Counted from the first letter of the stretch, positions 1 to 17,087 are shown. The stretch: 64,000 nt of DNA from Deltaproteobacteria bacterium (GCA_016218765.1 JACRCZ010000048.1:40779-104778); one strand, 5' to 3'. The notes: a model not told the origin generated them from the letters alone. Numbers and translations are program-made.

Positions 1-3000
1 CGCGCGGGATGGGCATGCTGGTGAGCAGCACGGTGATCTTGGCGGGGTCGTTGATCTGCCTGATCCGGTTGATGGTCTGCCAGTATTCAGAGTCCTCCAT
101 CATCCGGCGAACGCGCTCCACGCGGGGGTCGATGTACCTCCGAAGTCGCAAGCCGACAGGTCCACCCTCGTGCCCGACCGGGTTGTCGGCCGGGTCATCG
201 AAGTCGTTGATCGCGGCGTACGGGACGACCTCCTCGGCGGTCGCCTCGTCGATTTCCTCGTCCCCTTGATGCAGCGCCTGCGCCGCAAACAGCACGTCGT
301 CCGGCTTGGCAAACGGGAACCCCAGCAGAATGATCTGCCGGTATCCCGACAGGTCGGCGCCGCGGACAGCCCCGAACCACGCGACCTCGACGTTCGCCGG
401 CAGCGGGCCCAGTCCGGGCTCTGCGGTCCGGAGCGCCGCAACGACGCTCTTGTACGTGACCAGAAGGGTCGGGCCATCGACGCGTGCGGCACGAGCAACC
501 ACGACGCGGATCATCTGCTCCAGCGCGCGGCGGCGGAGGACCGGACCACCCGAAGTGCGTTCGAAGAACGTCGCGCGCGGGTAGCGCCCATTCACGATCT
601 GCAGAACGGGCCCGGTGAAGGGCACGCGCAGATCCCTCACGTCGACCCGCCGCCCCAGTACCCGTTCGAGAAGCACGGGGTCGGCAGTCGCATCCAGCAC
701 CAGCACAGGACGATTGCCGGTCCGTAGCTGCTCCACCCACATGACACGCCATCCCGAGCCATCCCATTCCACTGCGGCAGCCCTGCCGCGCAGCACGTCG
801 CGAAGGGCCAGCAGCAGCGGCTTCGGGTTGACCGGCGGACGCCGGATCCCTGCGGGCTGAAGACCCTCAAACCCAACCCGGTCCGCGTACGCATCCAGCC
901 CGCTCCGCCGCGTTGGACCGACCGCCTTCCAGTCGATCCGATCCACGTCGTCGGCGAAGGCGGCGGCATCGACGACCCCCAGCGCCTCGCGCAACTTGAG
1001 CCGCGTCAGGCTCTCCGGCTTCAACCGCAGCTCGGCGACGACGCGAACGGCACGCCGGAGCACAGCCGTTTGCTCCTCGGACGCTCCCACCAACGTCTCC
1101 ACCGCCCGCTCAAGATCGCTGGGGCGGTACCGACGCTCGCGCAAGCAGCTCGACAGCACGTCCTCATCGATCACCACGTACGAGAACTGCATCGCCACGT
1201 CGGTCAGCGACGCCCACTCGTGCACGACTGCGTGTGGAGCAGTCCGGTCTTGGACCGCGACCTGGTATTCGCAGGGCACCGACCCAACGCCCAGCCGGCG
1301 CGGGTTCCGGGGGCAGCGCAGGCACACGCTCGCGGTCGCGGCGCCACCCCAGCCGGCCTTCGTCAACGCCTCGATCTCGACCCATCGGTCGCAGTTCTCC
1401 GGCGACCGGCGGGGGACGTGAACGAGTCCCGGCCAGTTCCCCTCGAGCGCTGCGAGTAGGTCGTGCCGATCACTCGCCCACAGCACGCGGAACCTGCCCG
1501 GCACGCGGGCGATCAGGGCGAGAACCTCGCGCAACGTGATGGTCGTCTTGCCAGTTCCGGGCGGTGCACGTACGAGAACCACAGGCCCCCCACGCTTCGG
1601 AGCGAGCACCGCCGTAGCGATCTCGTTGCGGACCTGCTGGAGCATCTCCTCCAGCGTGGAGCCGGCCGGCACCGCCGCCGGCACGAGCGGCTCGACCCCT
1701 TCAGGGAGCGGCTCCGGAAACCGAACGCCGGGGCGCCGGCGGTTCTTCCACAAGGCGCGCATCGGGCACGCCGGGGCGCACGGCAGCCCAGCGTCACGCA
1801 GCGTCTGGCAGCTGCGTGCGGCGAACACGTAGGTATCGTCCCGGCACACAGCTGCAGAGCGATCGGCCGCCACAAGACGCTGCTCGCGCTGCGACGCCGA
1901 GAGGTCCGCCGAGCCGAGGTTCGCGGCAACGTCCTTGTACAACCGGCGGCGGTCGATTTCCTTGAGCTGACGCGTGCGGGCGTACGCAACGATGGCGACG
2001 GACACGACGTTCCGCTTGCCGGAAGGCGTCCCCGTCCGGGATCGGAGCGCTGCGACGCACGCGGGTTCGTCGGCGAGCTTCGCCGCGGAACGCGCCGCGG
2101 CGCGTCGCGTCGGTGGGCTTCCGGAGACACGCGCCGGCCTGCGGCCCGACGGCTCCTTCGGTTTCCGGGGAGTGCTGCTTCGCCGCCCGGGGTCGGTCTC
2201 GGCCTTGCCTGCCTCCTCGAGCCAGATTGCTGCCAGCGATCGTACGGGCTCCGGGTCGGGCTGGTCTGCCTCGGTGAGGGCAGGAGGGAAGCGTGCACGG
2301 TCCTTCAGCTCCGCCTCCCTCACGGGCTGCAGTTCGTCGATTGAAACCGGAACGGACCACAAGCCGGTCTTGCCGTGCCGCGTGCCAAGAAGCCGCGACT
2401 TGTGGCGCCGATCGAACAATGACCGATCGAACCTCGCGAGCCTGCCGAAGAGCCGCTCGGCCACCCGCCGCATGATGAGGTTGTTGCTGGGACCCGGGTT
2501 CTGTCCGAAAGCCGCGTACCAAAGGCGGACGTGAAAGCTCTTGCCGCCGGTGAACATCACCGCGATCGCGCTCGGTGGAACTCCGAAACCGATCATCTCC
2601 TGCACTTCGAGCACCGCGTCCCGCCGCGCCAACTCGAACGCACGGGGGCCAGTGTAGTCGCTCTCGAGCAGGAGGTCGGCTACGTGCGGCGACAAAGCGT
2701 CCGGCCTTGTGTAGGTGCAGATGGTGCCGACGGCATCATCGCCGTCGGCATGCCAGCGGGGATACCGGCGCAGCCTCTCGCGGGTGGACCACCAGTACGG
2801 TGCCGGGCCTACGCGGCCCAACTCGACGAACCGAGGCGTGCCGTCGATCGGCACGATCTCCGCCCCGACCTCGTCGGCGAGACCCGCAGGCAGCGAGGGA
2901 ACGGGGCGGTCATCCTCAAGCCAGCGCGGCTCGGCTTGATAGCCCGTTAGGTCGCACGTGTCACCGTCGGCCGCGAGGATCAAGTCGCTCGGCCGCGTCT

Positions 3001-3457
3001 CGATTCGCTCGAACACGGCCGCGTTCGGCGGGAACGCGAAGACGGCCTCGGCCGCATACGGACCGGCGGTCAGCACGAACGGCCGCTCGCTGCTGGGCAT
3101 GGCGGCGTTCAGAGTGCTCATGGCCCTCACGCCCACGGCGGTCACGCTCACCACCCTAGACCCCAACCCCGGGAGCAGAACGGGGACCGCGGCCGGGTGC
3201 TCCTTGATCCAGTCGAGGACCTCGCCCCAGTCAGGCGGCGGCCCACCGTCGGCCCCGGGGGCGACCACGCGCCTGTCGGAGCGCCCGCTGGTGAGCTCGA
3301 CCTTCCAGCCTCGGCCGATGACGGCGTTCTCGACGATGCGCGTGAGGCTGTCGGCGCCCCATCCGGCGGGCGGCCACTCTACCGACGTTGAGTTCGGTGT
3401 CAGCGGCTCGGATGTGCTAGCGTTGTTCGGGGCGGATGTCATCACCATCGCCTCCAT
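1..3457 (-). CDS. Large replication protein, partial at C-terminus (>1150 aa). The N-terminal region is AEP/PrimPol-like (ILAADGDT, GGKSFHVRLWY) and the central region is a P-loop NTPase (Walker A VRAPPGTGKTT, Walker B VVIDED)
   Basis: I translated the minus strand by hand. The reading frame is open from a TAG at 3593-3595 down to position 1 with no in-frame stop. Candidate ATG starts lie at 3440-3457. Walker A is encoded at about 1541-1573 and Walker B near 1160-1180. It is absent from the ORF track because its stop codon lies outside the window. Confidence 0.6.
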   Translation of the reverse strand, partial: MEAMVMTSAPNNASTSEPLTPNSTSVEWPPAGWGADSLTRIVENAVIGRGWKVELTSGRSDRRVVAPGADGGPPPDWGEVLDWIKEHPAAVPVLLPGLGSRVVSVTAVGVRAMSTLNAAMPSSERPFVLTAGPYAAEAVFAFPPNAAVFERIETRPSDLILAADGDTCDLTGYQAEPRWLEDDRPVPSLPAGLADEVGAEIVPIDGTPRFVELGRVGPAPYWWSTRERLRRYPRWHADGDDAVGTICTYTRPDALSPHVADLLLESDYTGPRAFELARRDAVLEVQEMIGFGVPPSAIAVMFTGGKSFHVRLWYAAFGQNPGPSNNLIMRRVAERLFGRLARFDRSLFDRRHKSRLLGTRHGKTGLWSVPVSIDELQPVREAELKDRARFPPALTEADQPDPEPVRSLAAIWLEEAGKAETDPGRRSSTPRKPKEPSGRRPARVSGSPPTRRAAARSAAKLADEPACVAALRSRTGTPSGKRNVVSVAIVAYARTRQLKEIDRRRLYKDVAANLGSADLSASQREQRLVAADRSAAVCRDDTYVFAARSCQTLRDAGLPCAPACPMRALWKNRRRPGVRFPEPLPEGVEPLVPAAVPAGSTLEEMLQQVRNEIATAVLAPKRGGPVVLVRAPPGTGKTTITLREVLALIARVPGRFRVLWASDRHDLLAALEGNWPGLVHVPRRSPENCDRWVEIEALTKAGWGGAATASVCLRCPRNPRRLGVGSVPCEYQVAVQDRTAPHAVVHEWASLTDVAMQFSYVVIDEDVLSSCLRERRYRPSDLERAVETLVGASEEQTAVLRRAVRVVAELRLKPESLTRLKLREALGVVDAAAFADDVDRIDWKAVGPTRRSGLDAYADRVGFEGLQPAGIRRPPVNPKPLLLALRDVLRGRAAAVEWDGSGWRVMWVEQLRTGNRPVLVLDATADPVLLERVLGRRVDVRDLRVPFTGPVLQIVNGRYPRATFFERTSGGPVLRRRALEQMIRVVVARAARVDGPTLLVTYKSVVAALRTAEPGLGPLPANVEVAWFGAVRGADLSGYRQIILLGFPFAKPDDVLFAAQALHQGDEEIDEATAEEVVPYAAINDFDDPADNPVGHEGGPVGLRLRRYIDPRVERVRRMMEDSEYWQTINRIRQINDPAKITVLLTSMPIPR

Positions 3458-3621
3458 CGGGCACGCCTCGTGGCGGAGGCGGTGCCCTGCGAAGAGAAGC
3501 AACCGTGGGGACGCGTGCCCTTGTCCGGGCGATGATGATGGGCGCTCTGGCCCTTTGGATGAGCCCTTGCGGGGACCGAGTCCCCTCGGGGTCTAGCTCG
3601 GCGCCGACCTTGCGGCGTAGC

Positions 3622-4245
3622 TCACGGCATAGGTCCCTCGGCTCGCATCGTCAAGCGAGCAGATCGGGGAGAAAACGCCGAACGGTCAGGTTGTTTCCAC
3701 GCCGATCCGGCCGCGGCATCGGCCACGAGCAGAAGGCGGGCTGCGCCGACAGCGGCTTCAGCAAGCATGCGCCGCGCCGCCCGGTGCAGGCACCTTCGGC
3801 TGGGCGCCCCCCCGGGGCATCGGTATGCTCGCTGGCGGAGCCGAGCGGCCTGCCGCAGCGGGCGGACGAGGTCCTTGTACCAGAACTTGTGGCCGTGGCG
3901 CTCCGACCAGCGCGGCAGCCCGACGCATCGGCTGCACCGGACGCCGTCGCTCACGAACCGTAGTAGGCGTGCAGAACTGCCGCAGGTTGGACACCGCGCC
4001 ACCCATCGCCGGCCGGCGAACGCGGTCGGATGTACTCCGAGCACGACGTGTACGCCCCCAAGCCCCGCCTCGTCCCCGACGAGGACCTCGACCTCTACGA
4101 CGTCGCCCAGCTCCGGCTTGGAGATGCCGCGGCCGATCTCATCCGCGGTCAGGTACGGTACGAGGTCGAGCACCGGGGAAGCCGCCAGACCATCAAGATC
4201 GATTGCGTGGACGCGACGTGCTTCGGGATCGCCGAGGAGCGTCAT
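3622..4245 (-). CDS. Hypothetical protein with a CxxC...CxxC zinc-ribbon-like motif
   Basis: ORF 3622..4332 on the minus strand. An internal Met (MTLLGDPEA) removes the overlap with the upstream gene. It carries CPTCG...CSRC and sits upstream of, and co-oriented with, the replication gene. Confidence 0.35.
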   Translation of the reverse strand: MTLLGDPEARRVHAIDLDGLAASPVLDLVPYLTADEIGRGISKPELGDVVEVEVLVGDEAGLGGVHVVLGVHPTAFAGRRWVARCPTCGSSARLLRFVSDGVRCSRCVGLPRWSERHGHKFWYKDLVRPLRQAARLRQRAYRCPGGAPSRRCLHRAARRMLAEAAVGAARLLLVADAAAGSAWKQPDRSAFSPRSARLTMRAEGPMP

Positions 4246-4259
4246 CTGCCCGTCCTCCC

Positions 4260-4553
4260 CTACGTCTTGGAGTTCCGCTCGTCCCGCGCTGGCACGCCCC
4301 GACCGGAATCCCACCCTCTCCTCCGCAGCCATCGCAGGTCCGTGTAGGTCTTGAGCAACTGCCGCTCGAACCGCAGCTTGGTGGCCATGTGCAGGCCCAG
4401 CGCCGACTCCTCTGCCCCGTCCACGCCATGGAGCGCCCGCCGGGTTTCCTCGATCTTCTGCTTCATCTCTGCGATCGCCACGTCCACGGCGTCCGGAACG
4501 GCTTCCCCGTCTCGTTCATCTCGGTCGGCAGGCACGGGCTCCAACTTCGTCAT
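4260..4553 (-). CDS. Small hypothetical protein
   Basis: A 97-aa ORF in an operon-like run on the minus strand. It shares ATGA-type junctions with its neighbours. Confidence 0.3.
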   Translation of the reverse strand: MTKLEPVPADRDERDGEAVPDAVDVAIAEMKQKIEETRRALHGVDGAEESALGLHMATKLRFERQLLKTYTDLRWLRRRGWDSGRGVPARDERNSKT

Positions 4554-5344
4554 CGGCCATCCTCACCCTCCTCACGCGGGACGCGTCGTACGACGTACCG
4601 GGGCACGGAGGAGCGCTCCCGCGCCCGGGTCTTGGCCACTTCGATCGCCTCAAGCAGTCGCAGGAATGTCCGAGACGTGATCGCCATCGTCCGCGACGCA
4701 TCGAGCGCAGCCCGCGAGCCGGCCGCCGGGGAATCCGTCTGCTGCAAGAACCGCGTCGCCGCGGTAGCCGCCCGCGAGTAGGTGACCCATGCGGCGCCGG
4801 TCAGCTGCGCGAGGAGCGCGACCTCGATCGAGGACGGGTCGGCTCCGCCAACGAGGCCGTAGGCGATCGCTCGACCCGCGTCCACCTGCAGCTTGCCCAT
4901 CGGCGTGCCGTCCATCAGGGAGTGGAGCGGACCACCGACGCCCTCGAGCGCGGCCCCAAGCGCTCGGCGGTCCTCGACCTCGTCCTTGGGAAACGGCGTC
5001 AATGTCCAGCCCGTCGGGCTCTTGGAGTCCTTCCGGATGGAGAGCGCGATCACCTCGCCGACAAGGGAGGGCGCGGGCTGGGCGCGTCGGGGGTCGCCCG
5101 AACGGGATGCCGTGCCGCGGGCCGAACGGTCCTCGGGACGTCCAACCCCGGCCGGCCCATGGTCCCCGTCGTACTGCTCGCCGACAAGGTCCATCACCGA
5201 CGGCACGCCGGGCGGGTTGAGCGCCTCGTCCTCGTCCGCACCATCGGCGGCGTCGGGCACCCCGACGTCGGCGCGGCCGGACCGCAGGAGCCCGAGACCG
5301 TCGTCAAGATCGTCATCATCGTCGAGGTCGGTGGCGGGTTGCAT
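4550..5344 (-). CDS. Hypothetical acidic protein. A GTG start at 5485 is an alternative
   Basis: ORF 4550..5485. It contains an Asp-rich tract (DLDDDDDLDD). This is the first gene of the leftward operon, which is divergent from the rightward genes starting at 5957. Confidence 0.3.
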   Translation of the reverse strand: MQPATDLDDDDDLDDGLGLLRSGRADVGVPDAADGADEDEALNPPGVPSVMDLVGEQYDGDHGPAGVGRPEDRSARGTASRSGDPRRAQPAPSLVGEVIALSIRKDSKSPTGWTLTPFPKDEVEDRRALGAALEGVGGPLHSLMDGTPMGKLQVDAGRAIAYGLVGGADPSSIEVALLAQLTGAAWVTYSRAATAATRFLQQTDSPAAGSRAALDASRTMAITSRTFLRLLEAIEVAKTRARERSSVPRYVVRRVPREEGEDGR

Positions 5345-5956
5345 CGCCCGATGATACCGCCGCGCCACCGTCAGCCGAAGTCCACACGACGCGCCGGTGG
5401 CGTGCCGAAGAGCACGAGCGGCACGGGTCCGCAGGCAGCGGAAATGATCGCCCACGCCCGGACTTCGTGACCGACCGTCAGTCACCCGGACGACCTACGT
5501 GCGATACCCCAACAGGAGCCAATACATGCGGGCAGCAGCCAGACCGCACCTTGCTTCTCAACTACATGACTTGCGTGGCCACCGCTGGCCGCCCGGCCGG
5601 TTGGTGCCCCATCGGCGCCGGCGAAGCGAAGGCGACGCACCGGGCCTGATCGGGACGCAGAGACGGCATGCTGCACAGCGAAAGGCCAAGGAACCGCAAG
5701 ACCAACCTCCATTTCTGCTATAAGACCCATGGGTTAGAGAACACGTCTTGCCGGCCGTCCACGCGTGTTGCTGCCGCTCGACACGGTCCAATTCGCCCAG
5801 TTGACCATGGAAGCCGCCCTCGGGAGCCACGCGGCCCCGTCCCAGCCGGATCCGCCGTCGGGCGGGCCGGGCCTAGTCACCCCGGACGTCCCGCTCCGGG
5901 ACACCCGCCCGGCGACGGTTCCGGTCGAACCACACGAACAACAGGAAGGAGTCCAG

Positions 5957-6076
5957 ATGCGAGAAGCCGCAGTCCGATGGGTTTCGTTCGCGAAGGTGAT
6001 CGCCGTGGCGGTGGTCACCGCGGCGATCGACCTGATCGTCGACTACTTCGACGATGACGAGGAGGAGCAGCGCTGA
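5957..6076 (+). CDS. Small hydrophobic protein (39 aa)
   Basis: A strong SD (GGAAGGAG) lies 6 nt upstream of the ATG. The product has a hydrophobic core, AKVIAVAVVTAAIDLIV. Its stop overlaps the ATG of the nuclease gene (TGATG). Confidence 0.3.
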   Translation: MREAAVRWVSFAKVIAVAVVTAAIDLIVDYFDDDEEEQR

Positions 6077-7155
6077 TGGAAGCCGTCGAACAGGTCACGA
6101 CACCAGCGGAATCGACGCTCGGCGCCACGCAGCGGAAGCCGAAACCGGCCCGGCAGGTCCGGGTGTTGACGTTCTCCTCGATCGAGACGTTCAGCAGGTG
6201 TCAGCACGAGTACGAGCTGCGCTACGAGCGCTTGCTCGTGCCGGCCGACTACTCCCCAGCGCTGGCCATCGGCGCCGGATTCCACCGGGGCATCGAGGTG
6301 CTCCACCTTCGCGGAACGCTGGCCGGTGCGCTGGCCGCCGCCAGCGTGGAAATCGAGGAGCACGCCGCGAAGGCGCGGGCGGTTCTCGACGACCTCGAGG
6401 CCGCCGCCCTGTCCGAGTCGGTGCGCTGGGACGCGGCCAAGACCCGCGGGATGGTCCGGGCGTGGCACGACCGGTACGTCGGTCCGGCGACGGCCAACGG
6501 CGGCGGCGTCCCCTACGTGGACTGCGACCGCGAGGCCGTCGAGGTCGAGCTGGCGCTGGAGGCGCCGCTCCGGAACCCCACCACCGGCCGGCCCTCTCGG
6601 TCGTTCCTGCTCGGCGGCCGCCTCGACGCCGTCGTCCGTCGGCGCGGGGCGACCGACTCCGGCTGGTGGCTACTGGAAACGAAGACGACCAGCGAGGCGC
6701 TCGACAGCTTCGTCGAGGCGATGCGCTTCAGCTTGCAGCCCAGCATCTACCAGACCCTCGCGATGGAGCATCTGGGCGACGAGCTCGGTCCGCCTCTGGG
6801 GACGATGCTGGACATCTGCGTGAAGCCGGCGGTCAGGCCCAAGAAGACGGAGACTCCTACCGACTTCGAGCAACGGGTCGTGGAGACGTACGCTGCGGAG
6901 CCCGATCGCTACTTCGCCCGCCTCGCGCTGCCGCTGGACGAGGCGCGGCGCCGTGAGGCCATACAGGTGGCGTGGAGGACGGCGGAGGCGATCCGCTCCT
7001 CGCTCCGTCACGGGTTCCTCGCGAAGGCCGGGCCAGCGTGCCGGGGAGCGTTCGGGCCCTGCAAGTACATGCGGATGTGCCGACACGGCGACCTGTCGGG
7101 TTTCGTGCAGAAGGTAATCCCCAACGAGGAGCTCACCCCTCGGCGGGTGAGCTGA
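6076..7155 (+). CDS. Cas4/RecB-family PD-(D/E)XK exonuclease with a four-Cys Fe-S cluster signature
   Basis: One N-terminal Cys (SRCQHEYELRY) and a C-terminal CRGAFGPCKYMRMC triad give the typical Cas4/AddB-type cluster ligands around a PD-(D/E)XK core. The ORF is 359 aa. Confidence 0.65.
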   Translation: MEAVEQVTTPAESTLGATQRKPKPARQVRVLTFSSIETFSRCQHEYELRYERLLVPADYSPALAIGAGFHRGIEVLHLRGTLAGALAAASVEIEEHAAKARAVLDDLEAAALSESVRWDAAKTRGMVRAWHDRYVGPATANGGGVPYVDCDREAVEVELALEAPLRNPTTGRPSRSFLLGGRLDAVVRRRGATDSGWWLLETKTTSEALDSFVEAMRFSLQPSIYQTLAMEHLGDELGPPLGTMLDICVKPAVRPKKTETPTDFEQRVVETYAAEPDRYFARLALPLDEARRREAIQVAWRTAEAIRSSLRHGFLAKAGPACRGAFGPCKYMRMCRHGDLSGFVQKVIPNEELTPRRVS

Positions 7156-7169
7156 AGGAGGTGAAGGTC

Positions 7170-8009
7170 ATGCGGAAGAACCGAAGCAGCGCCCTGTCCC
7201 TGATCCCGACCGCCCCGGGCGAGCCGGCCGCGACGCCGGCCGCCGCAATATCGTCGGCTACGCCGGTGCCCGCACCACTGGCGGTGCAGAACGTCCCCGA
7301 GGGGTTCGACGACCTGCTGGCCGACGACCTCGTGCTGCCGAGGCTGACGATCGTGCAGCCGACCTCGCAGGAGGGAAGCCCGGGCACCTTCCGGTCGTCG
7401 CTGACCGGCGAGGAGCGACGGGAGCTGCAGCTCGTCCCGCTCGCGATCAGGCGCGGTCGGATCTGCTGGGCAGAAACGCTGGGCGAGGATCCCGTGTGCA
7501 AGAGCAACGACGGCAGGCTCCCCGCGTCCACCGTGGAGAGACCCGTCAGCGAGGAGTGCTGCGTCCTCGCCGGCGGACGCCTCAAGCCGGTCTGCGGGGC
7601 GGCCGTTTGGCGCCGCGTCAAGACGGACGACGGTCTGTCGCGACAGGAGCCGCCTCGCTGCCGGGAAACAGCGATCGTCGTCGCGGTGGATCTCGAGACG
7701 CAGGCGCCGCTCATGATCGCCTTCCACGGTACGGGCATCCGTTCCGTCCGAGTCCTTCGCACGATCGCCCTGCAGAAGCGGCTCGCCTTGTTCGACGCCG
7801 CGGCCACGCTCCGGCTCCGCAAGGTCACGAACGCCCGCGGCACGTACTTCGTGCCCGAGTTCCACGACGTGCGTCCCGTCGAGCCGGCGGGGAAGTACAG
7901 GGCGCTGTACCAGCAGTTCGCCACCTACAACCCGGAGCAGACGTTCGAGGCCGAGCGCGAGGCCGGCGGCGCCGTCACCGAGGCGGCCGCGGAGGAACCG
8001 GCCTTCTGA
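7170..8009 (+). CDS. Hypothetical protein. A single-strand annealing or recombination partner of the nuclease is possible
   Basis: An AAGGAGG RBS sits directly upstream of the ATG at 7170. The gene immediately follows the nuclease. The product contains a Cys cluster (CKSNDG...CCVLAGGRLKPVCG). No family was recognised with confidence. Confidence 0.5.
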   Translation: MRKNRSSALSLIPTAPGEPAATPAAAISSATPVPAPLAVQNVPEGFDDLLADDLVLPRLTIVQPTSQEGSPGTFRSSLTGEERRELQLVPLAIRRGRICWAETLGEDPVCKSNDGRLPASTVERPVSEECCVLAGGRLKPVCGAAVWRRVKTDDGLSRQEPPRCRETAIVVAVDLETQAPLMIAFHGTGIRSVRVLRTIALQKRLALFDAAATLRLRKVTNARGTYFVPEFHDVRPVEPAGKYRALYQQFATYNPEQTFEAEREAGGAVTEAAAEEPAF

Positions 8010-8086
8010 CCCACCCAAGGCTTCCGCCACCAACACCACCGCGGGGGCATCGGCTTCGATGACCCCCGCGGCTGGAGGAGGGCCGC

Positions 8087-8497
8087 ATGCACTTCCAAGC
8101 CTTCAACACCTACGAGGACATGATGAGCGAGGTAGAGCGTGCCCGCGATGAGGCGGACGGGCAGGTCCAGCCGTGGCAGGCGGTGCTAGCGCCGGGGGAC
8201 TTCTTCATTCGCATCTGGAGCGGCCTCGTCATCTACGGCGAGATCCTCGACCCGGCCGTCCCGCAGTTCCCGGGCGACTACTCCGACGAGGCGCTGTCCG
8301 AGATCCGCCGGGAAGCCCGGATCTACGAGCAGCCCGAGATGCGCGGCTACCGGTTCACCCGCTGCTACAGCGTCGCGTGCCCGGAGGGGGAGTTCGGCGA
8401 CACGCACGTCTCCAGCATGACCCGCAAGATCACCCGCGAGCAGTTCGAGCAGGCGCGAGCCTCGGGCTGGCCGGAGGCGCCATGGCCGCGCCGCTGA
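8087..8497 (+). CDS. Hypothetical protein
   Basis: A 136-aa ORF, co-directional within the element. Confidence 0.45.
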   Translation: MHFQAFNTYEDMMSEVERARDEADGQVQPWQAVLAPGDFFIRIWSGLVIYGEILDPAVPQFPGDYSDEALSEIRREARIYEQPEMRGYRFTRCYSVACPEGEFGDTHVSSMTRKITREQFEQARASGWPEAPWPRR

Positions 8498-8706
8498 CGG
8501 ACCGGGAGCTCGGACACGTGCTCGCCGGCCTGCGTCTGCTCCAGCGGGAGCCGTGCGTCCCGGTGCCGATCGATGACATCCGAACCAACGGGGGCCGACA
8601 CGCGCCGATGAGCCCGTCGGAGATCGACGACCTTTGCGAACGGCTGAACGTCGTCCCCCAGCCCCGGCGACGGCGACGGGCAACAAGGAGGCCACGACAT
8701 GGGTGA
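8482..8706 (+). CDS. Small hypothetical protein
   Basis: An internal ATG of ORF 8173..8706. It overlaps the previous stop by 16 nt. Confidence 0.3.
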   Translation: MAAPLTDRELGHVLAGLRLLQREPCVPVPIDDIRTNGGRHAPMSPSEIDDLCERLNVVPQPRRRRRATRRPRHG

Positions 8707-9310
8707 CCACTGCTGGGTGGGCGTGACCTGCCGGACCGTGGACCGGTCGGCGTTCGAGGAGATCGGCTTCGTCGTGGAGCGCGAGAACGACGACGGCAGC
8801 GTGTTCCTGACGCAGGACTCCGCCAACCACGCGGCCGACTCGGAGCTCCGCGAGCTGGGGCGCATGGGCATCGTCTTCCTCGCCACCCACGGTCCCGGCG
8901 AGGAGTACGGCGACGGGGCCTACGCCTCCTACGGCCGGCGCTTCCTCCACGTGGACTGCCTCGCGGGAGGCCTGCCCGCGGTCGAGGTGAACGCGGACGG
9001 CAACCCTGACCCGGACCAGCTACGCGCAGTCCGCCAGTACCTCGAGGTCGCCGCGGCGGCGAAGGAGATCATCACCGGCAGGGCATCGCAGCCGACGGCG
9101 CCGGCTCGCATCTTGGTGACGCTGCATGTGCGCGGCGCCGGCTCCGACGACTTCGGGGTCGTCACGGTCTGCATCCCGCTGACCGAGATCGACTGGTCCC
9201 TCGCCGATGCTCCCCGGAAGCGGATCGGCATGGAGGACGTGTACGAGCTCGACCTGCGCCTCGAGCTCCCCGGCGAGGAGCCCGCGACGGCGACGTGGGA
9301 CCGCTCGTGA
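8699..9310 (+). CDS. Hypothetical protein
   Basis: A 203-aa ORF. Its start overlaps the previous stop. Confidence 0.45.
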   Translation: MGDHCWVGVTCRTVDRSAFEEIGFVVERENDDGSVFLTQDSANHAADSELRELGRMGIVFLATHGPGEEYGDGAYASYGRRFLHVDCLAGGLPAVEVNADGNPDPDQLRAVRQYLEVAAAAKEIITGRASQPTAPARILVTLHVRGAGSDDFGVVTVCIPLTEIDWSLADAPRKRIGMEDVYELDLRLELPGEEPATATWDRS

Positions 9311-9401
9311 TCGACCACCGCCCACGCCGCGCCCCGTAGAACATCCCAAACCCAAGCACCCGGCGACACGACCCTCACGCGCCGGGAAGGTGCACTGCAT
9401 C

Positions 9402-9605
9402 ATGACGACGATGACGCCGGCCGACAGGCCGGAGAACCCCGAGATCGGCTCCGCAACCGTCCACGACTCCGACGACGAGTACGACTTCGGTCCCCGCATC
9501 CATGCGGGCGCGATGGACTCGACGGCCCGCTGGCGGATGGCGAACGTCGAGCGCGACCGATCGTTCCGCCTCGACGTCCTGCGGGCCGCCGGTCTGCTCG
9601 GCTGA
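9402..9605 (+). CDS. Small hypothetical protein
   Basis: An internal ATG (MTTMTPADRP) of ORF 9207..9605. Confidence 0.25.
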   Translation: MTTMTPADRPENPEIGSATVHDSDDEYDFGPRIHAGAMDSTARWRMANVERDRSFRLDVLRAAGLLG

Positions 9606-9720
9606 CCCGACCGTGCCGCTGGAGTCCCGAACGTCCGAATGAACCCGCGCCCCAAGGCGCACGTCCGCGCCGCGGGGATCCAGCCGGCTCCTCGTGTGCG
9701 CCCAGAGCAAGGAGCCGGAG

Positions 9721-10410
9721 ATGAACCTGAGCACGGAGGATGTCGCGCTCGACGCCGCCCGCCGGCGGTTCGAGGAGATCGTTCGGTCCGGGGCGATGCG
9801 GGTGTGCGAGAGGCCCGTGTACTACGCCGCCGACCGGGAGGACCGCGTCGCCGAGGGCGTCGCCCACTGCTGGGCGTGGTACCGGCACCAGTCGTTGCTG
9901 GGCAACAGCCCGGACGTCGCTCTCGTGGTCCACGTGGCCCGGCTGCGGACCACCGACCGTACGCGGCGTTTCGTCAGCGGCGACGGCACGCGCTGGGGCG
10001 AAGACGTCTACGTCCAGCAGGAGCGCGGCGTCGAGCTGCGGCGGCTCGACGGTGTGCACGACCACGACGACGGCGACGACGAGGAGCGGCACGAGGACCT
10101 GTCGCTGGGCTTGGCCCGACTCGGCGTCTCGAACCTGGAGGCGAATCTCGCCAGCTCGATCGACTTGCGCGACTGGCTCGACTCGCTCCCCTCCTCCGAC
10201 GAGGAGATGATCGAGATGCGCGGCGCTGGCCACGAACTCCACGAGATCGCCAAGGCGACCGGCCGGTCGGTGCCGACGATCTGCCGCCGCATCCGCGACC
10301 TCGGCGTCGAGCTGGCGGAGCGGGCCGGTGTGCCGGTTCCGCACGGAAGGCGCCGCGGTCGTGCCGGCGGCATCAGCGAGGTTCATGCCGACGCGGGCGG
10401 TGCGGCATGA
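9721..10410 (+). CDS. Regulator with a sigma-70 region-4-like HTH
   Basis: The C-terminal segment SDEEMIEMRGAGHELHEIAKATGRSVPTICRRIRDLG resembles sigma region 4 or a LuxR-type HTH. Confidence 0.5.
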   Translation: MNLSTEDVALDAARRRFEEIVRSGAMRVCERPVYYAADREDRVAEGVAHCWAWYRHQSLLGNSPDVALVVHVARLRTTDRTRRFVSGDGTRWGEDVYVQQERGVELRRLDGVHDHDDGDDEERHEDLSLGLARLGVSNLEANLASSIDLRDWLDSLPSSDEEMIEMRGAGHELHEIAKATGRSVPTICRRIRDLGVELAERAGVPVPHGRRRGRAGGISEVHADAGGAA

Positions 10411-10844
10411 GCGCGGCACGATGCCCCGCCTGCGGTCACGTTCTCGCCGCAGAGGCGCCGGCACCGTCGTTGCGCTGCTCCGCCGAGGCGTTCGAGGCGC
10501 TCGGCGAGCGGCTCTCTCGCTGCCGTCAGGAGCGCTTCCTCGTCGTCGCGCTCGACGCCCGGAACCGGATCATCGCCCGTCACCTCGTCGCGGTCGGGTC
10601 GCTCTCGACGTGCGTCGTGCACCCCCGCGAGGTTTTCTCGCCGCTCGTCCGTCGCCATGCTGCCGCAGCGCTGCTCGTCCACAACCACCCTTCCGGCGAC
10701 CCGCAGCCGAGCCCCGAGGACCGCGTCTTGACCGAGCGGCTGGCCGACGCTGGCCGGTTGCTCGGCATCCCCATCCTCGACCACCTGATCGTCGGGCGCG
10801 AGGGCTACCACAGCTTCCGCGACGCGGGCGGGATCTGCTCGTAG
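10407..10844 (+). CDS. radC: RadC-like JAB/JAMM domain protein
   Basis: The motif LLVHNHPSGDPQPSPEDRVLT is the RadC/UPF0758 signature (HNHPSG...PS..D). There is an ATGA overlap with the upstream regulator. Confidence 0.75.
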   Translation: MSAARCPACGHVLAAEAPAPSLRCSAEAFEALGERLSRCRQERFLVVALDARNRIIARHLVAVGSLSTCVVHPREVFSPLVRRHAAAALLVHNHPSGDPQPSPEDRVLTERLADAGRLLGIPILDHLIVGREGYHSFRDAGGICS

Positions 10845-10904
10845 CCGAGCTGGATCTTCGACCAGAAGTCGGCGAAGCTGCACGTCGCTGGAGACGTCGT
10901 CGCC

Positions 10905-11705
10905 ATGACGGGGCGCAAGACAAGTCGGAGCACGATGACCGGGATCCCTTGGCCCCCGCACGGCTCCAGCGGCGGCCCCCGGCGGCTGGGCGCATCGCAG
11001 CACACGTTCTGTCGCGGCGATGAGGCCGCTCAGGCCTTCGAGGCGATCACGACGGTGCCCGTAGGGAGAATCAAGGAAGCGGTGGCCAGTCCGCCGCCTT
11101 TTCCCGACGACAAGCGGCCGACCCGTTCGCACCGCCGGTCAAGGCACGTCTTCTTCCCCAAGTCCGGCGAGGCACAGCTGGACGTCGTCCAGCAGTTGGC
11201 CGCTGTCGTGAGGCACCACGACGAGGCACTGCACCAGCTCGAGGTCGCACGCTACGGTGAGGCCAACTGGGCTAGTCGAGTGGTGGACTACGCCGGCCAG
11301 CTGCGTCCGTCGGTCGACGCGCTGCTCCGCGCGCTCCAGCCACGGGGTGAACCGGCACCGGAGCTTCTCGCTCTGTTGGAAGAGGCCGGGTGGGGGGCGG
11401 GGGATGTCAAGACTCTGACCCGGCTCTTGGGCGAGCTGGTTGGTGCTGGGGAGCGGCTCAAGCTGCTCGCCCCAGCGGACGAGAAGCGCTCGCCCGGTCG
11501 ACCAATAGGCCCGTTCAACGAAATCGTTGCTCGCCTCGCAGCGATTCTTCGACCGATCGCCCACGGCCGGCACCGATTGGCGGTGTCGCTGTTCGTCATC
11601 GCATTCGACTGGGTGGATGACGAGATCCGCCGCAAGGTCGGCGACGTCATGTACTACGACTTCGATGCCGTCGCCGAGCGCGTGAAGTTCGCGCTCCGCA
11701 AGTAG
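10905..11705 (+). CDS. Hypothetical protein
   Basis: A 266-aa ORF. The start could instead be an internal Met. Confidence 0.45.
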   Translation: MTGRKTSRSTMTGIPWPPHGSSGGPRRLGASQHTFCRGDEAAQAFEAITTVPVGRIKEAVASPPPFPDDKRPTRSHRRSRHVFFPKSGEAQLDVVQQLAAVVRHHDEALHQLEVARYGEANWASRVVDYAGQLRPSVDALLRALQPRGEPAPELLALLEEAGWGAGDVKTLTRLLGELVGAGERLKLLAPADEKRSPGRPIGPFNEIVARLAAILRPIAHGRHRLAVSLFVIAFDWVDDEIRRKVGDVMYYDFDAVAERVKFALRK

Positions 11706-11843
11706 AGGATTCCGCTTCCGGGCGTTCCGCGTTCTCTCCCCACCCGGTTCCCCGGCCCCCCAGTTCCGCGCGTGCTCTGCTCATCGTGGGTCCCCCGGGG
11801 GTACTCGCGCGAGGTGCGGGACCCCGGGCGGCCGGAGCCGAAG

Positions 11844-12275
11844 ATGGCGCCGGACAGGGCAACCGGGTGGCTCGACGTGAAGCAGGTCGCGGAGCGCTTC
11901 GGCGTCAGCCGCACCACCGCCTACCGCTGGATCGTCGCCTTCATGCCGCACCTGCGCGTCGGTCGCGTCGTGCGCGTCACCGAGCGGACCCTCGAGGAGT
12001 TCGCCCGGAGGTTCACGGAGGTTCGTTCATGTCGAAGCTCTTCCGGCCCAAGGGCCGGCAGGTCTGGCAGACCCTCATCCGACTGCCCGACGGCCGGCGG
12101 ATGTGGCGCACCACCGGATGCACCGACCGACGCGCCGCAGAAGCTCGAGCTCGTCAGGTCGAGCGTGACGTGGCCGAAGCCGGTGATGCCAAGAACCAAA
12201 CCCACCCGCTCGGCGACGCCCTCGCCTACTTCATCGCCGACCGCGAGCGGATCGGACGTGCCGCAGGCACGGTGA
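11844..12275 (+). CDS. xis: Excisionase-family HTH DNA-binding protein. The 3' extent is uncertain
   Basis: LDVKQVAERFGVSRTTAYRWIVAFMPHLRVGRVVRV matches the excisionase/AlpA HTH. The ORF runs 246 nt into the integrase gene in another frame, so the true C-terminus may be earlier or a frameshift may be present. Confidence 0.5.
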   Translation: MAPDRATGWLDVKQVAERFGVSRTTAYRWIVAFMPHLRVGRVVRVTERTLEEFARRFTEVRSCRSSSGPRAGRSGRPSSDCPTAGGCGAPPDAPTDAPQKLELVRSSVTWPKPVMPRTKPTRSATPSPTSSPTASGSDVPQAR

Positions 12276-13117
12276 GCATGCACAAGGTCAAGGCCGGGCA
12301 CCTGATCCGGCTCCTCGGAGGGAACCACAACGTCAACTCGCTGAAGCTGGACGATGTCGCCGCGTACATCGACACGCGCAAGGTCGAGGGTGCCTGCACC
12401 AACACGATCGCCAAGGAACTGATCACGCTACGCGCAGCGCTGCGCGTAGCCCGCAAGCGGGGCGTCTACGACGGCCACCCGGAGGATCTGATCCCCACGG
12501 GGTTCAGCCCGCACTACGTGCCCCGCAAGCGCTGGCTCTCCCCGGCGGAGTTCGAGAAGCTCCTCCTCCAGTTGCCGGCCGACCGGCGGGCGCATGTCGC
12601 GATCATGGTCTTCACCGGGGTCCGGCTATCGGAGTCGGCTGCGCTGCGGCCGGAGCACGTCGACATCGAGAAGCGCCGCCTCTACATTCCGGGGACAAAG
12701 ACGGAGCAGGCCGGGACGACCGTTCCCCTCGCCGCTGCTGCGGTCCCGTGGCTGATGGCGCTGCTCGGTCACCGTCCCGCCGGGCAGGCGGAGCTCCTCA
12801 CCCCGTGGCGGAACATCCGGCGGGACCTCCGCCTCGCCTGCGACAAGGCCGAGATCGATCCCGTTTCGCCCAACGACCTCCGCCGCACCTTCTCCAGCTG
12901 GCTCGAGCAGGCCGGGGTCCCCCGCGGCACCAACGCCCGGCTGATGCGCCACACCACAACCGCGATGGTGGACAAGGTCTACGCCCAGTCCGCCTTCGAG
13001 ACGCTCTCGGCGGCTGCGGACCTCCTGCCCGCGGGTCCCACGGTCAGCGTCGGTCTGCTGCCCGCGCCGCCGGAGTCGAGACCGGACAAGGTCGCCAGCG
13101 ACGGAGCGAAGAAGTAG
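12029..13117 (+). CDS. int: Tyrosine site-specific recombinase (phage integrase family)
   Basis: The C-terminal catalytic region reads LRRTFSSWLEQAGV...LMRHTTTAMVDKVYAQ (R...HxxR...Y). A GGAGG RBS lies 9 nt upstream of the ATG. Confidence 0.85.
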   Translation: MSKLFRPKGRQVWQTLIRLPDGRRMWRTTGCTDRRAAEARARQVERDVAEAGDAKNQTHPLGDALAYFIADRERIGRAAGTVSMHKVKAGHLIRLLGGNHNVNSLKLDDVAAYIDTRKVEGACTNTIAKELITLRAALRVARKRGVYDGHPEDLIPTGFSPHYVPRKRWLSPAEFEKLLLQLPADRRAHVAIMVFTGVRLSESAALRPEHVDIEKRRLYIPGTKTEQAGTTVPLAAAAVPWLMALLGHRPAGQAELLTPWRNIRRDLRLACDKAEIDPVSPNDLRRTFSSWLEQAGVPRGTNARLMRHTTTAMVDKVYAQSAFETLSAAADLLPAGPTVSVGLLPAPPESRPDKVASDGAKK

Positions 13118-13238
13118 GAGACTGGGCGCTCGTTCCGCCACGGCGGTGACGAGCGGCAATTGACGACGCGGGGGAACGCCGCCGGCATCGCGCCGACGTG
13201 GCCCAACGTCCGACACGCGGTGGTCGAAACGGCGTACC

Positions 13239-14507
13239 ATGGCTCCGGGAGGAGAGGTGCGGGCGAGGATCCACCGCGGGGCGAGCGAGATCGGCGGCAA
13301 CTGCATCGAAGTGGAGGCTGCAGGCCACCGGCTTCTCCTCGATCTCGGCTGGCCGCTCAACCTCCCATTCGATGCCGATCTGTCCCTGCCCGAAGTCGCC
13401 GGCCTGTCGAGCGCCGATCCCTCCCTGCTCGGAGTCATCATCAGCCACCCCCACCTCGACCACTACGGTCTGGCCCGCAAGGTCCCGGCCGCCGTTCCCT
13501 TCTACGAGGGGGAAGCGGCGTACAACATCATGCGGGAGGCGGCCTTCTTCACCGGCGCCGGCATGACGGTGGAGCCGGCCGGCTTCCTGCGGCACCGCCA
13601 GCCGTTCACGCTCGGCCCGTTCACCGTCACGCCCTACCTGATCGACCACAGCGCCTTCGACTCGTACTGCCTGCTCGTCGAGGCCGACGGGCGACGCCTG
13701 TTCTACAGCGGCGACGTGCGGGCCCACGGACGCAAGCCCGGCACGTTCCTCGAGCTGCTCCGCGACCCTCCCGCCGACGTGGACGCGCTCGTCTTGGAAG
13801 GAACGAGCATCCGGCCGGACGCGGACGGCTCCGAACGGGCCATCACCGAGGCCGAAGTCGAGGACGCCTGTGTCGGGACGTTCCGGGCAACGCCCGGAAT
13901 GGTGCTCGCGCTGTTCTCCCCACAGAACATCGACCGGCTGGTCACCATGTACCGGTCGGCCATCCGCTCGGATCGCGACCTCGTGCTCGACCTCTACGCG
14001 GCAGCCGTGGCCGCCGCCACGGGACGCGAGACGATCCCGCAGGCCCACTGGGACCGGGTGCGCGTCTACCTGCCGCACGGCCAGCGGATGAAGGTGATCC
14101 AGTCGGCCGAGTTCCACCGAACGGATGCGGTTCGGCCCCGACGGATCTACCCGGAGGAGCTGCGCGAACGCTCCGGAAAGCTCGTCACGATCTTCCGCAC
14201 GAGCATGGCCCGGGAAATGGAGAAGGCCGGCTGCCTCGTGGGCGCCCATGCCGTGTGGTCGATGTGGCCGGGCTATCTGCGGGAGCCGTCCGGGGAGAAG
14301 CTGAAGGCGTTCTTGGACCGGCTCGGCATCGGGATGACCATCCACCACGCGAGCGGCCACGCCGCGGTCCCCGACCTGCAGCGGCTCGTCGAGGCCGTCG
14401 CGCCGCGCAAGGTCGTGCCGATCCACACGTCGGCCGCCGACCGCTTCCGCGAGTTCGTTCCCAGCGTCGAGCAGCATGGTGACGGCGAGTGGTGGGACGT
14501 CGCCTGA
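13239..14507 (+). CDS. MBL-fold metallo-hydrolase, possibly a beta-CASP-type nuclease
   Basis: It has the HxHxDH motif (SHPHLDH), a downstream Asp (YSGD) and conserved His residues near the C-terminus. The ORF is 422 aa. Confidence 0.7.
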   Translation: MAPGGEVRARIHRGASEIGGNCIEVEAAGHRLLLDLGWPLNLPFDADLSLPEVAGLSSADPSLLGVIISHPHLDHYGLARKVPAAVPFYEGEAAYNIMREAAFFTGAGMTVEPAGFLRHRQPFTLGPFTVTPYLIDHSAFDSYCLLVEADGRRLFYSGDVRAHGRKPGTFLELLRDPPADVDALVLEGTSIRPDADGSERAITEAEVEDACVGTFRATPGMVLALFSPQNIDRLVTMYRSAIRSDRDLVLDLYAAAVAAATGRETIPQAHWDRVRVYLPHGQRMKVIQSAEFHRTDAVRPRRIYPEELRERSGKLVTIFRTSMAREMEKAGCLVGAHAVWSMWPGYLREPSGEKLKAFLDRLGIGMTIHHASGHAAVPDLQRLVEAVAPRKVVPIHTSAADRFREFVPSVEQHGDGEWWDVA

Positions 14508-14518
14508 GTCCCGCGGGA

Positions 14519-15118
14519 ATGGAGGGCACCATGGAACATCGTCTTCATCAAGTCATCGGGGACATCGTGCAGGAAGCGGCCAAGGGGCTCAGCGGCGTCA
14601 GGCCACTTCTGGACCCAGCGTGCGGTGTCCCAAAGGCCGGGCACCACAACCTGCCGCTCTTTCTGTCGGAGGAGCCGAGCAACGCGACCGAGATCTGCAA
14701 CGTGGACGCCGTGATTCTCGTCGGCAACCGCGTCGAGGACTACCGCATCAAGGTCGTCGTCGAGATCGAGGAGGCTGACGTCGGGCCGACGAAGATCTGC
14801 GGCAAGTTCCTCACGACGACGCTGGCGAAGTACCTCATCCACGAGAAGCTCGGGGACCGCCCAGTACCGTTCGATGCCGCCGCCACGTTCGTGCAGGTGC
14901 TCGACACGTCGGGACTCAAGCTGGGCCGGAGTGCCAAGCCGCGCCAGTGGAAGAACATCGAGGACGCCATCAAGGCCGCCATCAGGGACACGCCGCTCGT
15001 CAAGGCGACAGGGGTGACGGGCTACATGCTGGTGCACGGGAACAAGGACGACTTCGGGCGGAATGGTGCGAAGCGACGCGAGCTCATGGAGTTCCTCCGC
15101 CAAGCAGTCGAGCGGTAG
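14519..15118 (+). CDS. Hypothetical protein paired with the MBL-fold gene
   Basis: About 200 aa, directly downstream with a start-stop overlap. It has a possible PD-(D/E)XK-like pattern (NVDAVILV...KVVVEIEE), which is weak. Confidence 0.5.
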   Translation: MEGTMEHRLHQVIGDIVQEAAKGLSGVRPLLDPACGVPKAGHHNLPLFLSEEPSNATEICNVDAVILVGNRVEDYRIKVVVEIEEADVGPTKICGKFLTTTLAKYLIHEKLGDRPVPFDAAATFVQVLDTSGLKLGRSAKPRQWKNIEDAIKAAIRDTPLVKATGVTGYMLVHGNKDDFGRNGAKRRELMEFLRQAVER

Positions 15119-15309
15119 GATTCGGGCGCCCAGCGCTACGAGGCCGGTGACGCGTCGCGGCGGCATCCCGTCGCGTCCATGACACCTCCGGCTGCGACCC
15201 GTCGACCGTCAACGCTGTCGTCAACACGAACCGGCACTTTGGGGCGTTTCCAGCAACAGGAGAACAGATCCCGCCCTCGCAGAAGCTCTTGATTCCTTTG
15301 TTTTTCGAG

Positions 15310-15382
15310 TGCCCAGGGACGGAGTTGAACCGCCGACACGGGGATTTTCAGTCCCCTGCTCTACCACCTGAGCTACCTGGGC
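15310..15382 (-). tRNA. tRNA-Phe (anticodon GAA)
   Basis: The minus-strand sequence GCCCAGGTAGCTCAGGTGGTAGAGCAGGGGACTGAAAATCCCCGTGTCGGCGGTTCAACTCCGTCCCTGGGCA folds as a canonical cloverleaf with anticodon loop CTGAAAA and closely matches bacterial tRNA-Phe. CCA is not encoded. Confidence 0.85.
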
Positions 15383-15422
15383 TCCGGGGGCGATGCGCTT
15401 CTATCGTCCGACGGGGGCGAAG

Positions 15423-16994: not shown

Positions 16995-17087
16995 CGGTGG
17001 TTCCTTCCCCGAACCTTGACCGGTCATCGAACCGGATGCTACGCGAGACGCGGGGGACGGGCCAGCCGGCAAAGAGAGGCGGAGGCG

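Follow-up and report, generated by a model that had tools for sequence, protein, structure and literature searches.

What occupies the DNA on the 3' side of the tRNA-Phe gene in a 64,000-nucleotide stretch of a Deltaproteobacteria bacterium assembly (GCA_016218765.1, JACRCZ010000048.1:40779-104778; hereafter the window, numbered from its first letter)? An initial annotation, made from the sequence alone, read positions 1 to 15,382 as an integrative element without visible structural genes, either satellite-like or resembling an integrative and conjugative element (ICE). Our analysis indicates that an integrative element is real. The account that we consider probable is that of a horizontally acquired element of at least 24.6 kb, integrated at the tRNA-Phe 3' end, which carries its own replicase and defence cargo and in which no virion or conjugation genes are visible. 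The designation 'virion-less' is likely to be appropriate.

Variable DNA at the tRNA-Phe site

The tRNA-Phe(GAA) gene lies at 15309-15382 on the minus strand (ARAGORN; Rfam RF00005, 66.7 bits). It is intact, its 3' end faces left into the element, and across the 64 kb it is the sole tRNA gene, the Rfam scan having returned nothing else. The nearest relative, and the sole close one in our presence/absence comparison, is a groundwater 'Deltaproteobacteria' metagenome-assembled genome (MAG), referred to here as L003. The enoyl-CoA hydratase gene to the right of the tRNA finds its top match there, at 95% amino acid identity, with more distant matches in Myxococcales and Polyangiales MAGs; on these matches, the host is a groundwater Myxococcota-like genome, and an actinomycete, first suspected from the 70% G+C, was rejected. 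L003 has an identical tRNA-Phe, conserved tRNA flanks (15278-15433), and DNA that aligns at about 88% identity from window position 17014 rightwards. Left of the tRNA, the only feature in common is a related pair of excisionase (Xis) and integrase (Int) genes (74% nucleotide identity; Int, 67% amino acid identity), beyond which L003 carries different genes, including those for a 577-aa P-loop protein and a ParB-like protein. The locus is thus polymorphic for presence and absence: L003 has the same tRNA-Phe and, apart from the related Xis-Int pair, is without the element. As judged from this comparison, the tRNA-Phe site turns over between two closely related genomes, and since different elements with related integrases sit at one site in both, the pattern is that of a mobile-element hotspot.

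Base composition changes at the same point. GC skew ranges from -0.01 to -0.07 between position -9302 (see below) and about 14.7 kb, then reverses sign at the tRNA, to the right of which it is +0.1 to +0.28. G+C content is 58-65% at the far left, versus 70-76% in the core. The reading of the block as an integrative element, already offered in the initial annotation, and as horizontally acquired DNA is supported by the skew reversal at the tRNA and by the relative that lacks the element.

The extent of the element was pursued beyond the window. Logan contig SRR12113407_122599 (L001/L168) reproduces window positions 1-10574 with one mismatch and runs 9,302 nt further left. With one mismatch in 10,574 bases, both assemblies must represent essentially the same population. 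Positions left of the window start, reached through this contig, are given as negative coordinates, down to -9302. A gene just left of the window encodes a protein 100% identical to NCBI MBI5499771.1 (HY907_05980). The lone base at which the window and the contig differ, across the 10,574 aligned, is at 8901.

Exact and mismatch searches found no copy of the tRNA 3' half (for example, GGAGTTGAACCGCCGACACGG) within the window, in keeping with the earlier statement that the left boundary and the attachment (att) repeat are outside it or undetected. The same annotation had looked to a direct repeat further upstream; the search was carried to -9302, but no tRNA-Phe 3' repeat was found. Specifically, k-mers of at least 10 nt and fuzzy 25-40-mers with up to six mismatches gave, between -9302 and 15250, no match of 12 nt or more to the tRNA 3' region and no 25-40-mer with six or fewer mismatches. 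The k-mer search inside L003 likewise returned no att repeat. Because no tRNA 3' copy appears down to -9302, the element must be at least 24.6 kb long. On its right side, similarity to L003 disappears left of about 15278; the roughly 30 nt 3' of the tRNA (15278-15308, no strand assigned), which pairwise alignment and BLAST show to be kept in L003, are the probable junction or att-proximal sequence.

A predicted primase-helicase with a DinG/XPD-like motor

The G+C content of the window is about 70%, and for this reason raw open reading frame (ORF) lists are mostly noise. Genes were called from third-position GC (GC3) and cross-checked against the gene calls of the Logan contig. The PrimPol-helicase-like replication gene of the initial annotation is present at 2-3442 on the minus strand, open at the window edge, where it encodes the N-terminal 1147 of 1303 residues; the full 1303 residues come from the Logan contig, which places the end of the gene about 469 nt beyond the left window edge. 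The product is laid out as an archaeo-eukaryotic primase (AEP; PriS-like) primase-polymerase, a PriCT-like Cys-rich middle and a DinG/XPD-like superfamily 2 (SF2) helicase with a four-Cys insertion.

The AEP domain spans residues ~220-450 and aligns with many short proteins, one of which bears PriCT_1. Motifs I to III read LESD, TGGKSFH and FDRSLFD...R..H in the alignment, the clade having ExD for DxD. The family profile matches the archaeal PriS 1zt2_A (E=1.6e-10), and tblastn matches include phage genes annotated 'DNA primase small subunit'. In an AlphaFold (AF2) model with a predicted local distance difference test score (pLDDT) of 82.8, the top PDB folds are all AEPs, namely Prim-PolC, LigD-pol, CAPP and PriS. 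By its motifs and modelled fold, then, the N-terminal domain is assigned to the AEP superfamily.

The helicase half was modelled with a pLDDT of 89.4 and a predicted template modelling score (pTM) of 0.90, and its top Foldseek matches are DinG 6fwr_A (E=3e-11), CasDinG and XPD (E from 3e-11 to 1e-8, probability 1.0). At the sequence level, a profile-to-PDB comparison matches XPD weakly (E about 1e-4). GTGKT and DE(D) are conserved, and four Cys residues between Walker A and Walker B are invariant in 25/25 homologues that cover the region, which is where XPD and DinG have their iron-sulfur (FeS) domain. An SF2 motor with a predicted FeS domain, as these models and alignments depict it, places the C-terminal half in the XPD/Rad3/DinG family. 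The resemblance to DinG, CasDinG and XPD comprises the best structural matches to this half, the SF2 motor and the four-Cys insertion in motor domain 1. The protein departs from them in its sequence identity of 12-15%, in its fusion to a primase and in lacking any repair or CRISPR type IV context; its FeS cluster and 5'-3' polarity are predictions.

In the middle region (window ~1766-2059, minus strand), a PriCT-like GxRN motif is accompanied by invariant Cys residues 462, 545, 555 and 559. This second set of four Cys recalls, by analogy, the metal or FeS site of primase large-subunit-type domains.

A k-mer-indexed search of 5.8 billion proteins found only the replicase itself, and exhaustive HMMER against 1.84 billion cluster representatives gave 473 relatives at E<1e-3, 12 of them at E<1e-30, counted as 50%-identity clusters. 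Neither the 50,697 phage records nor the 72,556 plasmid records contained a full-length homologue; IMG/VR yielded no relative, and the genome-contig scan was likewise empty. No Pfam match above threshold was obtained for the replicase or for the four full-length homologues scanned. Taken on sequence relationships, the AEP-DinG/XPD replicase defines a small family.

A survey of AEP fusions on mobile elements (Kazlauskas et al. 2018, PMC5862659) lists SF3/D5, DnaB, RepA, MCM, VirE, DUF927, DUF3987 and UL9-like remote SF2 partners, and nowhere mentions DinG or XPD. No description of an AEP-DinG/XPD fusion was found in the literature searched, where absence is no proof of novelty. The PrimPol-PV1 supergroup, pRN1 ORF904 and All3500 (with remote SF2-like C-terminal domains; PMC5862659) share with the replicase an N-terminal AEP, a PriCT-like region and a C-terminal helicase, and, like it, lie beside an integrase gene on an integrated mobile element. 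Unlike in those fusions, the helicase here is of the DinG/XPD-type SF2 class by fold, and its four invariant Cys lie between the Walker A and Walker B motifs. An integrative element at a tRNA gene is nothing unusual, and this one as such is ordinary, but an AEP joined to a DinG/XPD-type iron-sulfur helicase would extend the known repertoire of primase-helicases on mobile elements by one helicase class, and biochemistry would have a clean target in it.

The next gene upstream of that for the replicase encodes a 207-aa protein (3622-4245, minus strand), a conserved partner with no Pfam or PHROG match. It is 30-33% identical to products of two related elements (L163 and L164); its homologue is directly upstream of the replicase in L163 and about 3 kb upstream in L164, while in a third element, L166, a related gene lies downstream. 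A 105-aa gene called from GC3 on the opposite strand (4030-4347, plus) was rejected in favour of 3622-4245, whose product has homologues in related elements.

Operon layout and the integration end

The genes are arranged in two divergent operons. The leftward one ends in the replicase; the long rightward one runs toward the tRNA in the order exonuclease, gp34-like, sigma-like and RadC genes, then xis and int. The latter has its genes in the same order as the early-left operon of lambdoid phages. The predicted promoter region between the two operons (about 5368-5526) and the region upstream of the replicase contain no iteron-like repeats.

The Cas4-like nuclease, RadC, sigma-like regulator and excisionase/integrase pair named in the initial annotation were all recovered, the regulator with weak support. 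The Cas4-like PD-(D/E)XK exonuclease (6076-7155, plus strand; PF12705, E=6e-16; phrog_1218 exonuclease, E=2e-16) has the D...ExK motif together with one N-terminal and three C-terminal Cys, as befits the Cas4-like/RecB-family PD-(D/E)XK nucleases. Residues D184, E201 and K203 and Cys 42, 322, 329 and 335 are invariant across four homologues. Because there is no CRISPR context, we name it Cas4-like rather than Cas4 proper. It is 45-51% identical in amino acid sequence to its counterparts in L163, L164 and L166, and a viral-contig scan with the nuclease alignment found no IMG/VR relative. The next gene (7170-8009, plus strand; PF23977, E=1.2e-7) encodes a Pam3_Gp34-like protein, a phage early or DNA-metabolism gene product that is 47% identical to the product of the nuclease-adjacent gene in L163 and has distant homologues in Gordonia phage replication regions, for example Katyusha gp59. 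The sigma-70/ECF-like regulator with a C-terminal helix-turn-helix (HTH; 9721-10410, plus strand) is a weak assignment: TIGR02937 scores 26 bits (E=6e-6), below its cut-off of 42.9, and phrog_351 (sigma factor) matches at E=6e-4. Its stop codon overlaps the start of the RadC-like JAB-domain gene (ATGA; 10407-10844, plus strand), whose product matches PF04002 at E=1.6e-40 and phrog_10276 at E=3e-32 and in which the motif HNHPSGDPQPSPED can be read directly.

The excisionase-like HTH_17 gene (11844-12275, plus strand; PF12728, E=2.5e-9; phrog_66 excisionase, E=6e-8) and the tyrosine integrase gene (12029-13117, plus strand; PF00589, E=2e-17; PF02899; phrog_1, E=3e-47) have counterparts beside tRNA-Phe in L003, in the same layout and with 60% and 67% amino acid identity, respectively. 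As in other tRNA-integrated elements, a tyrosine recombinase gene here lies near a tRNA gene whose 3' end, at 15309, faces the element. The xis reading frame enters the integrase gene by about 247 nt in another frame, and does likewise in L003 (about 4344-4700). This could be a by-product of high G+C content, which makes stop codons scarce in the other frames, or the genes could truly overlap or be arranged for a frameshift. Box II of the integrase, where many tyrosine recombinases have HxLR, reads NDLRR by eye, and the Asn is common to the L003 integrase.

The initial annotation placed these genes beside a tRNA gene, and the tRNA-Phe(GAA) is confirmed; the integrase, however, is not adjacent to it, as two genes intervene. 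One encodes a beta-CASP metallo-beta-lactamase (MBL)-fold nuclease, RNase J-like (13239-14507, plus strand; PF12706, PF00753 and PF07521), whose PDB matches are EF2904 (E=4.5e-12) and RNase J and which has no PADLOC match. The other, the last before the tRNA (14519-15118, plus strand; GC3 0.85-0.89), encodes a 199-aa protein with no match in Pfam, NCBIfam, PHROGs or PADLOC. Both are absent from L003. They form a two-gene insert between int and att and might be an undescribed defence or accessory pair.

Several of these features would also suit a decayed or composite genomic island, now immobile, made of one or more integration remnants at a tRNA-Phe hotspot and kept for its defence genes. Such an island would account for the missing att repeat within 24.6 kb, for cargo lodged between int and the tRNA, for an xis frame that runs 247 nt into int, and for a far-left G+C content lower than that of the int-proximal part, which would fit two acquisition layers. 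We nevertheless hold this to be improbable. The reading frames are all intact with high GC3, and the replicase retains its catalytic motifs and all of its Cys ligands. The xis/int overlap is common to L003 and hence a family feature rather than damage, and the different content of the same site in the nearest relative implies recent turnover.

Leftward genes and defence cargo

Beyond the replicase, the Logan contig continues with a divergent cI-type HTH_31 regulator, an OB-fold lipoprotein with a weak Sie-like match, UzuA and two further genes; there follow a ParB_N protein, a 143-aa gene, a 233-aa gene, an FRG protein, a DUF262/GmrSD_N protein and the start of a GHKL ATPase gene (HATPase_c_3 by Pfam). 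UzuA, a GIY-YIG protein encoded at about -1671 to -2495, has a weak GIY-YIG Pfam match and matches the single-gene Uzume model of PADLOC over its full length (PDLC03973, E=3.6e-67, residues 4-274/274), which identifies it as a predicted Uzume system. PADLOC further classifies the FRG protein as candidate defence system PDC-S15 (E=1.6e-41) and the DUF262/GmrSD_N protein as NsnA-like (E=4.6e-23). With the GHKL ATPase, these make up a cluster of known or candidate anti-phage genes. Part of the element is thus predicted defence cargo, a point that the initial annotation missed; such cargo is placed at both ends of the visible region, most of it outside the window.

The 233-aa protein (L168 10001-10702, corresponding to about -5625 to -6326) has no Pfam or PADLOC match and a borderline one (E=0.00097) to phrog_14314, an HNH endonuclease. 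At E<=1e-20, 1679 homologues were found, the best-scoring being 47-60% identical and occurring in MAGs of several labelled phyla and in many metagenomes, and the protein looks like a member of a widespread, well-conserved unannotated family. The position of its gene beside ParB_N was considered as a phage-packaging lead and rejected, the gene being elsewhere a widespread, solitary chromosomal one.

Virion and transfer genes

Is the element a phage of which only one half is in view? Over the 24.6 kb, 31/32 proteins were scanned with Pfam and/or PHROGs, most with both, and none matched a capsid, portal, terminase, tail or lysis family. As far as the element is visible, this agrees with the initial annotation; in particular, no structural phage genes were found immediately to the left, in the 9.3 kb extension. 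Apart from the replicase, the largest product has at most 422 residues. Five related elements (L163, L164/165, L166/167, L173 and L176) were viewed in part, over 7.5-23.5 kb each, and showed no virion genes among their recorded Pfam matches or in PHROG searches of ten larger unknown ORFs.

A complete temperate prophage would present, in this region, its lysogeny, early and replication half with a moron/defence region, its late genes (terminase, portal, capsid, tail and lysis) lying beyond -9302 and before the far att site. Recombination genes, xis, int and att follow one another in lambda-like order; this order, the replication operon that diverges from it and the cI-like HTH_31 repressor speak for such a phage, as do phage-family matches of the integrase, excisionase, exonuclease, RadC and ParB-like proteins, a match to phrog_26160 at E=3e-56 and the weak Sie-like lipoprotein. 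ParB_N proteins often precede phage packaging genes, and the left end is unseen. To set against this, 24.6 kb have yielded no structural or packaging match, the 7.6 kb beyond the replicase hold mostly nuclease and defence-type genes, the five related elements are without such phage genes in their partial views, and neither the replicase nor the nuclease has an IMG/VR relative. On this evidence, a complete prophage is unlikely, though it is the alternative to be taken most seriously. The likeness to a lambdoid early region does extend to a recombination-gene operon that ends in xis and int toward att, to the divergent replication operon, to the cI-type HTH repressor and accessory or defence 'moron' genes, and to integration at a tRNA 3' end. 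The differences are the want of late genes in 24.6 kb, an AEP-DinG-like replicase instead of an O/P- or DnaB-type one, a Cas4-like nuclease with no recognisable annealing protein, and cargo between int and att.

Conjugative transfer, as by an ICE or an integrative and mobilizable element (IME), was also weighed. An integrase and excisionase at a tRNA, RadC and the ParB_N proteins could belong to such an element, RadC and ParB_N proteins being common on conjugative islands, and the left part is unseen. Against it, none of 31 proteins scanned over the 24.6 kb matched a relaxase, coupling protein, FtsK-like translocase or type IV secretion family in Pfam, and no such family occurs in the recorded Pfam matches of the related loci. 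The 'ICE-like' part of the initial annotation therefore finds no support in the visible 24.6 kb, and we regard an ICE or IME as very improbable.

Likeness to phage satellites is closer. Like P4-like satellites and phage-inducible chromosomal islands (PICIs), the element combines an integrase, an AlpA/Xis-type HTH_17 regulator and a large primase-helicase (here, AEP-helicase) by a tRNA gene, with no structural matches in view. Defence genes as cargo, reported for P4-like satellites, are a further likeness. In P4 alpha, a primase is fused to an SF3 helicase. Unlike in P4 alpha, the AEP of this element is fused to an SF2 helicase. Also unlike satellites, the element measures at least 24.6 kb against about 7-18 kb, its xis and int close a long co-directional operon, and it has no known helper phage; no PHROG or Pfam match was found to helper-exploitation genes (psu/sid/delta, terS, capsid-size redirection). 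On account of its size and of the lack of such genes, we do not file it as a phage satellite.

A proposed mobile element with its own replicase

If the integrative element works as its homologues do, Int would carry out recombination between attP on the element and an attB overlapping the tRNA 3' end, and excision would be directed by Xis. The excised circle would be replicated by the primase-helicase, aided by the nuclease and its partners, and the defence cargo may pay for the element's keep. Because neither a virion nor a conjugation gene is found here or in the five related partial views, the element probably relies for its transfer on an outside agent, for instance a helper phage or a second element.

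Some observations weigh against this account of a replicating, defence-bearing and virion-less element. Its left end was not reached down to -9302, where no tRNA 3' repeat occurs, which leaves its size, its completeness and its ability to move unproven. Both the order of the operons and many of the family matches are phage-like, and late genes could be further left. Instead of belonging to this element as cargo, the defence cluster could form an island of its own next to it. For most of the small genes, no function can be assigned, and structural proteins that have diverged can go undetected by hidden Markov models (HMMs). Finally, the integration, replication, excision and defence functions are assigned by homology only.

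The related elements lend the account a wider setting. The three closest (L163, L164 and L166) share the replicase, the Cas4-like nuclease and a homologue of the 207-aa protein; L163 has in addition the gp34-like gene, and after its replicase come an HTH_17 gene and a 381-aa gene without annotation. A CHAT protease is encoded in L164. In L173 (10264-19142), the gene for a distant replicase homologue (P0009) lies next to a large serine recombinase gene, two GmrSD-type genes and genes for a patatin and a dynamin-like GTPase. MAG GCA_964568275.1 holds two diverged paralogous elements on different contigs (L165 and L167), with replicase homologues P0003 (1459 aa) and P0004 (1317 aa). One of these two elements reaches the end of its contig, as might happen where an assembly breaks at mobile DNA.

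The recurrence of the replication core with different recombinases, and with defence-type cargo in at least two elements, suggests a modular vehicle for defence genes in little-studied soil and groundwater bacteria. As a tentative generalisation, which we think possible but would not yet call probable, the elements may constitute an undescribed family of virion-less integrative elements, built on a conserved replication core in which an AEP primase fused to a DinG/XPD-like FeS helicase is joined by a Cas4-like nuclease and by a small partner protein or two, with interchangeable tyrosine or large serine recombinases and variable anti-phage cargo. If so, Myxococcota and other uncultured bacteria would harbour them as mobile islands of defence genes or as satellites that depend on a helper.

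Remaining genes and flanking DNA

The leftward operon further includes genes for 97 and 272 aa (4260-4553 and 4550-5368, minus strand), on which the GC3 and Logan calls agree. The rightward operon starts with two small genes, for 65 and 103 aa (5526-6076, plus strand; gene calls), and between the gp34-like and sigma-like genes has four more (8087-8497, 8482-8706, 8699-9310 and 9402-9605, plus strand), supported by GC3 values of 0.81-0.95 and by Logan calls. All of these are without family matches. A 266-aa protein encoded between RadC and xis (10905-11705, plus strand; GC3 call) has no Pfam, NCBIfam or PHROG match.

To the right of the tRNA, a variable stretch of 1.6 kb with a secreted-protein gene precedes fatty-acid oxidation genes, part of core metabolism, from 17088 on. 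The 5' side of tRNA-Phe varies as well: window 15434-17013, with a secreted protein of about 524 aa that bears an HExxH motif, stands in place of L003 5908-9926, with a secreted protein of 1291 aa. Variable DNA thus lies to either side of the tRNA. In the core region, a large gene contains Cys-rich tandem repeats (23742-25728), one with a period of 159 bp in 2.2 copies and one with a period of 387 bp in 3.5 copies. L003 has a similar repeat region, and the repeats resemble the MopE or DUF4215-type Cys-rich ones in a protein of the L167 contig.

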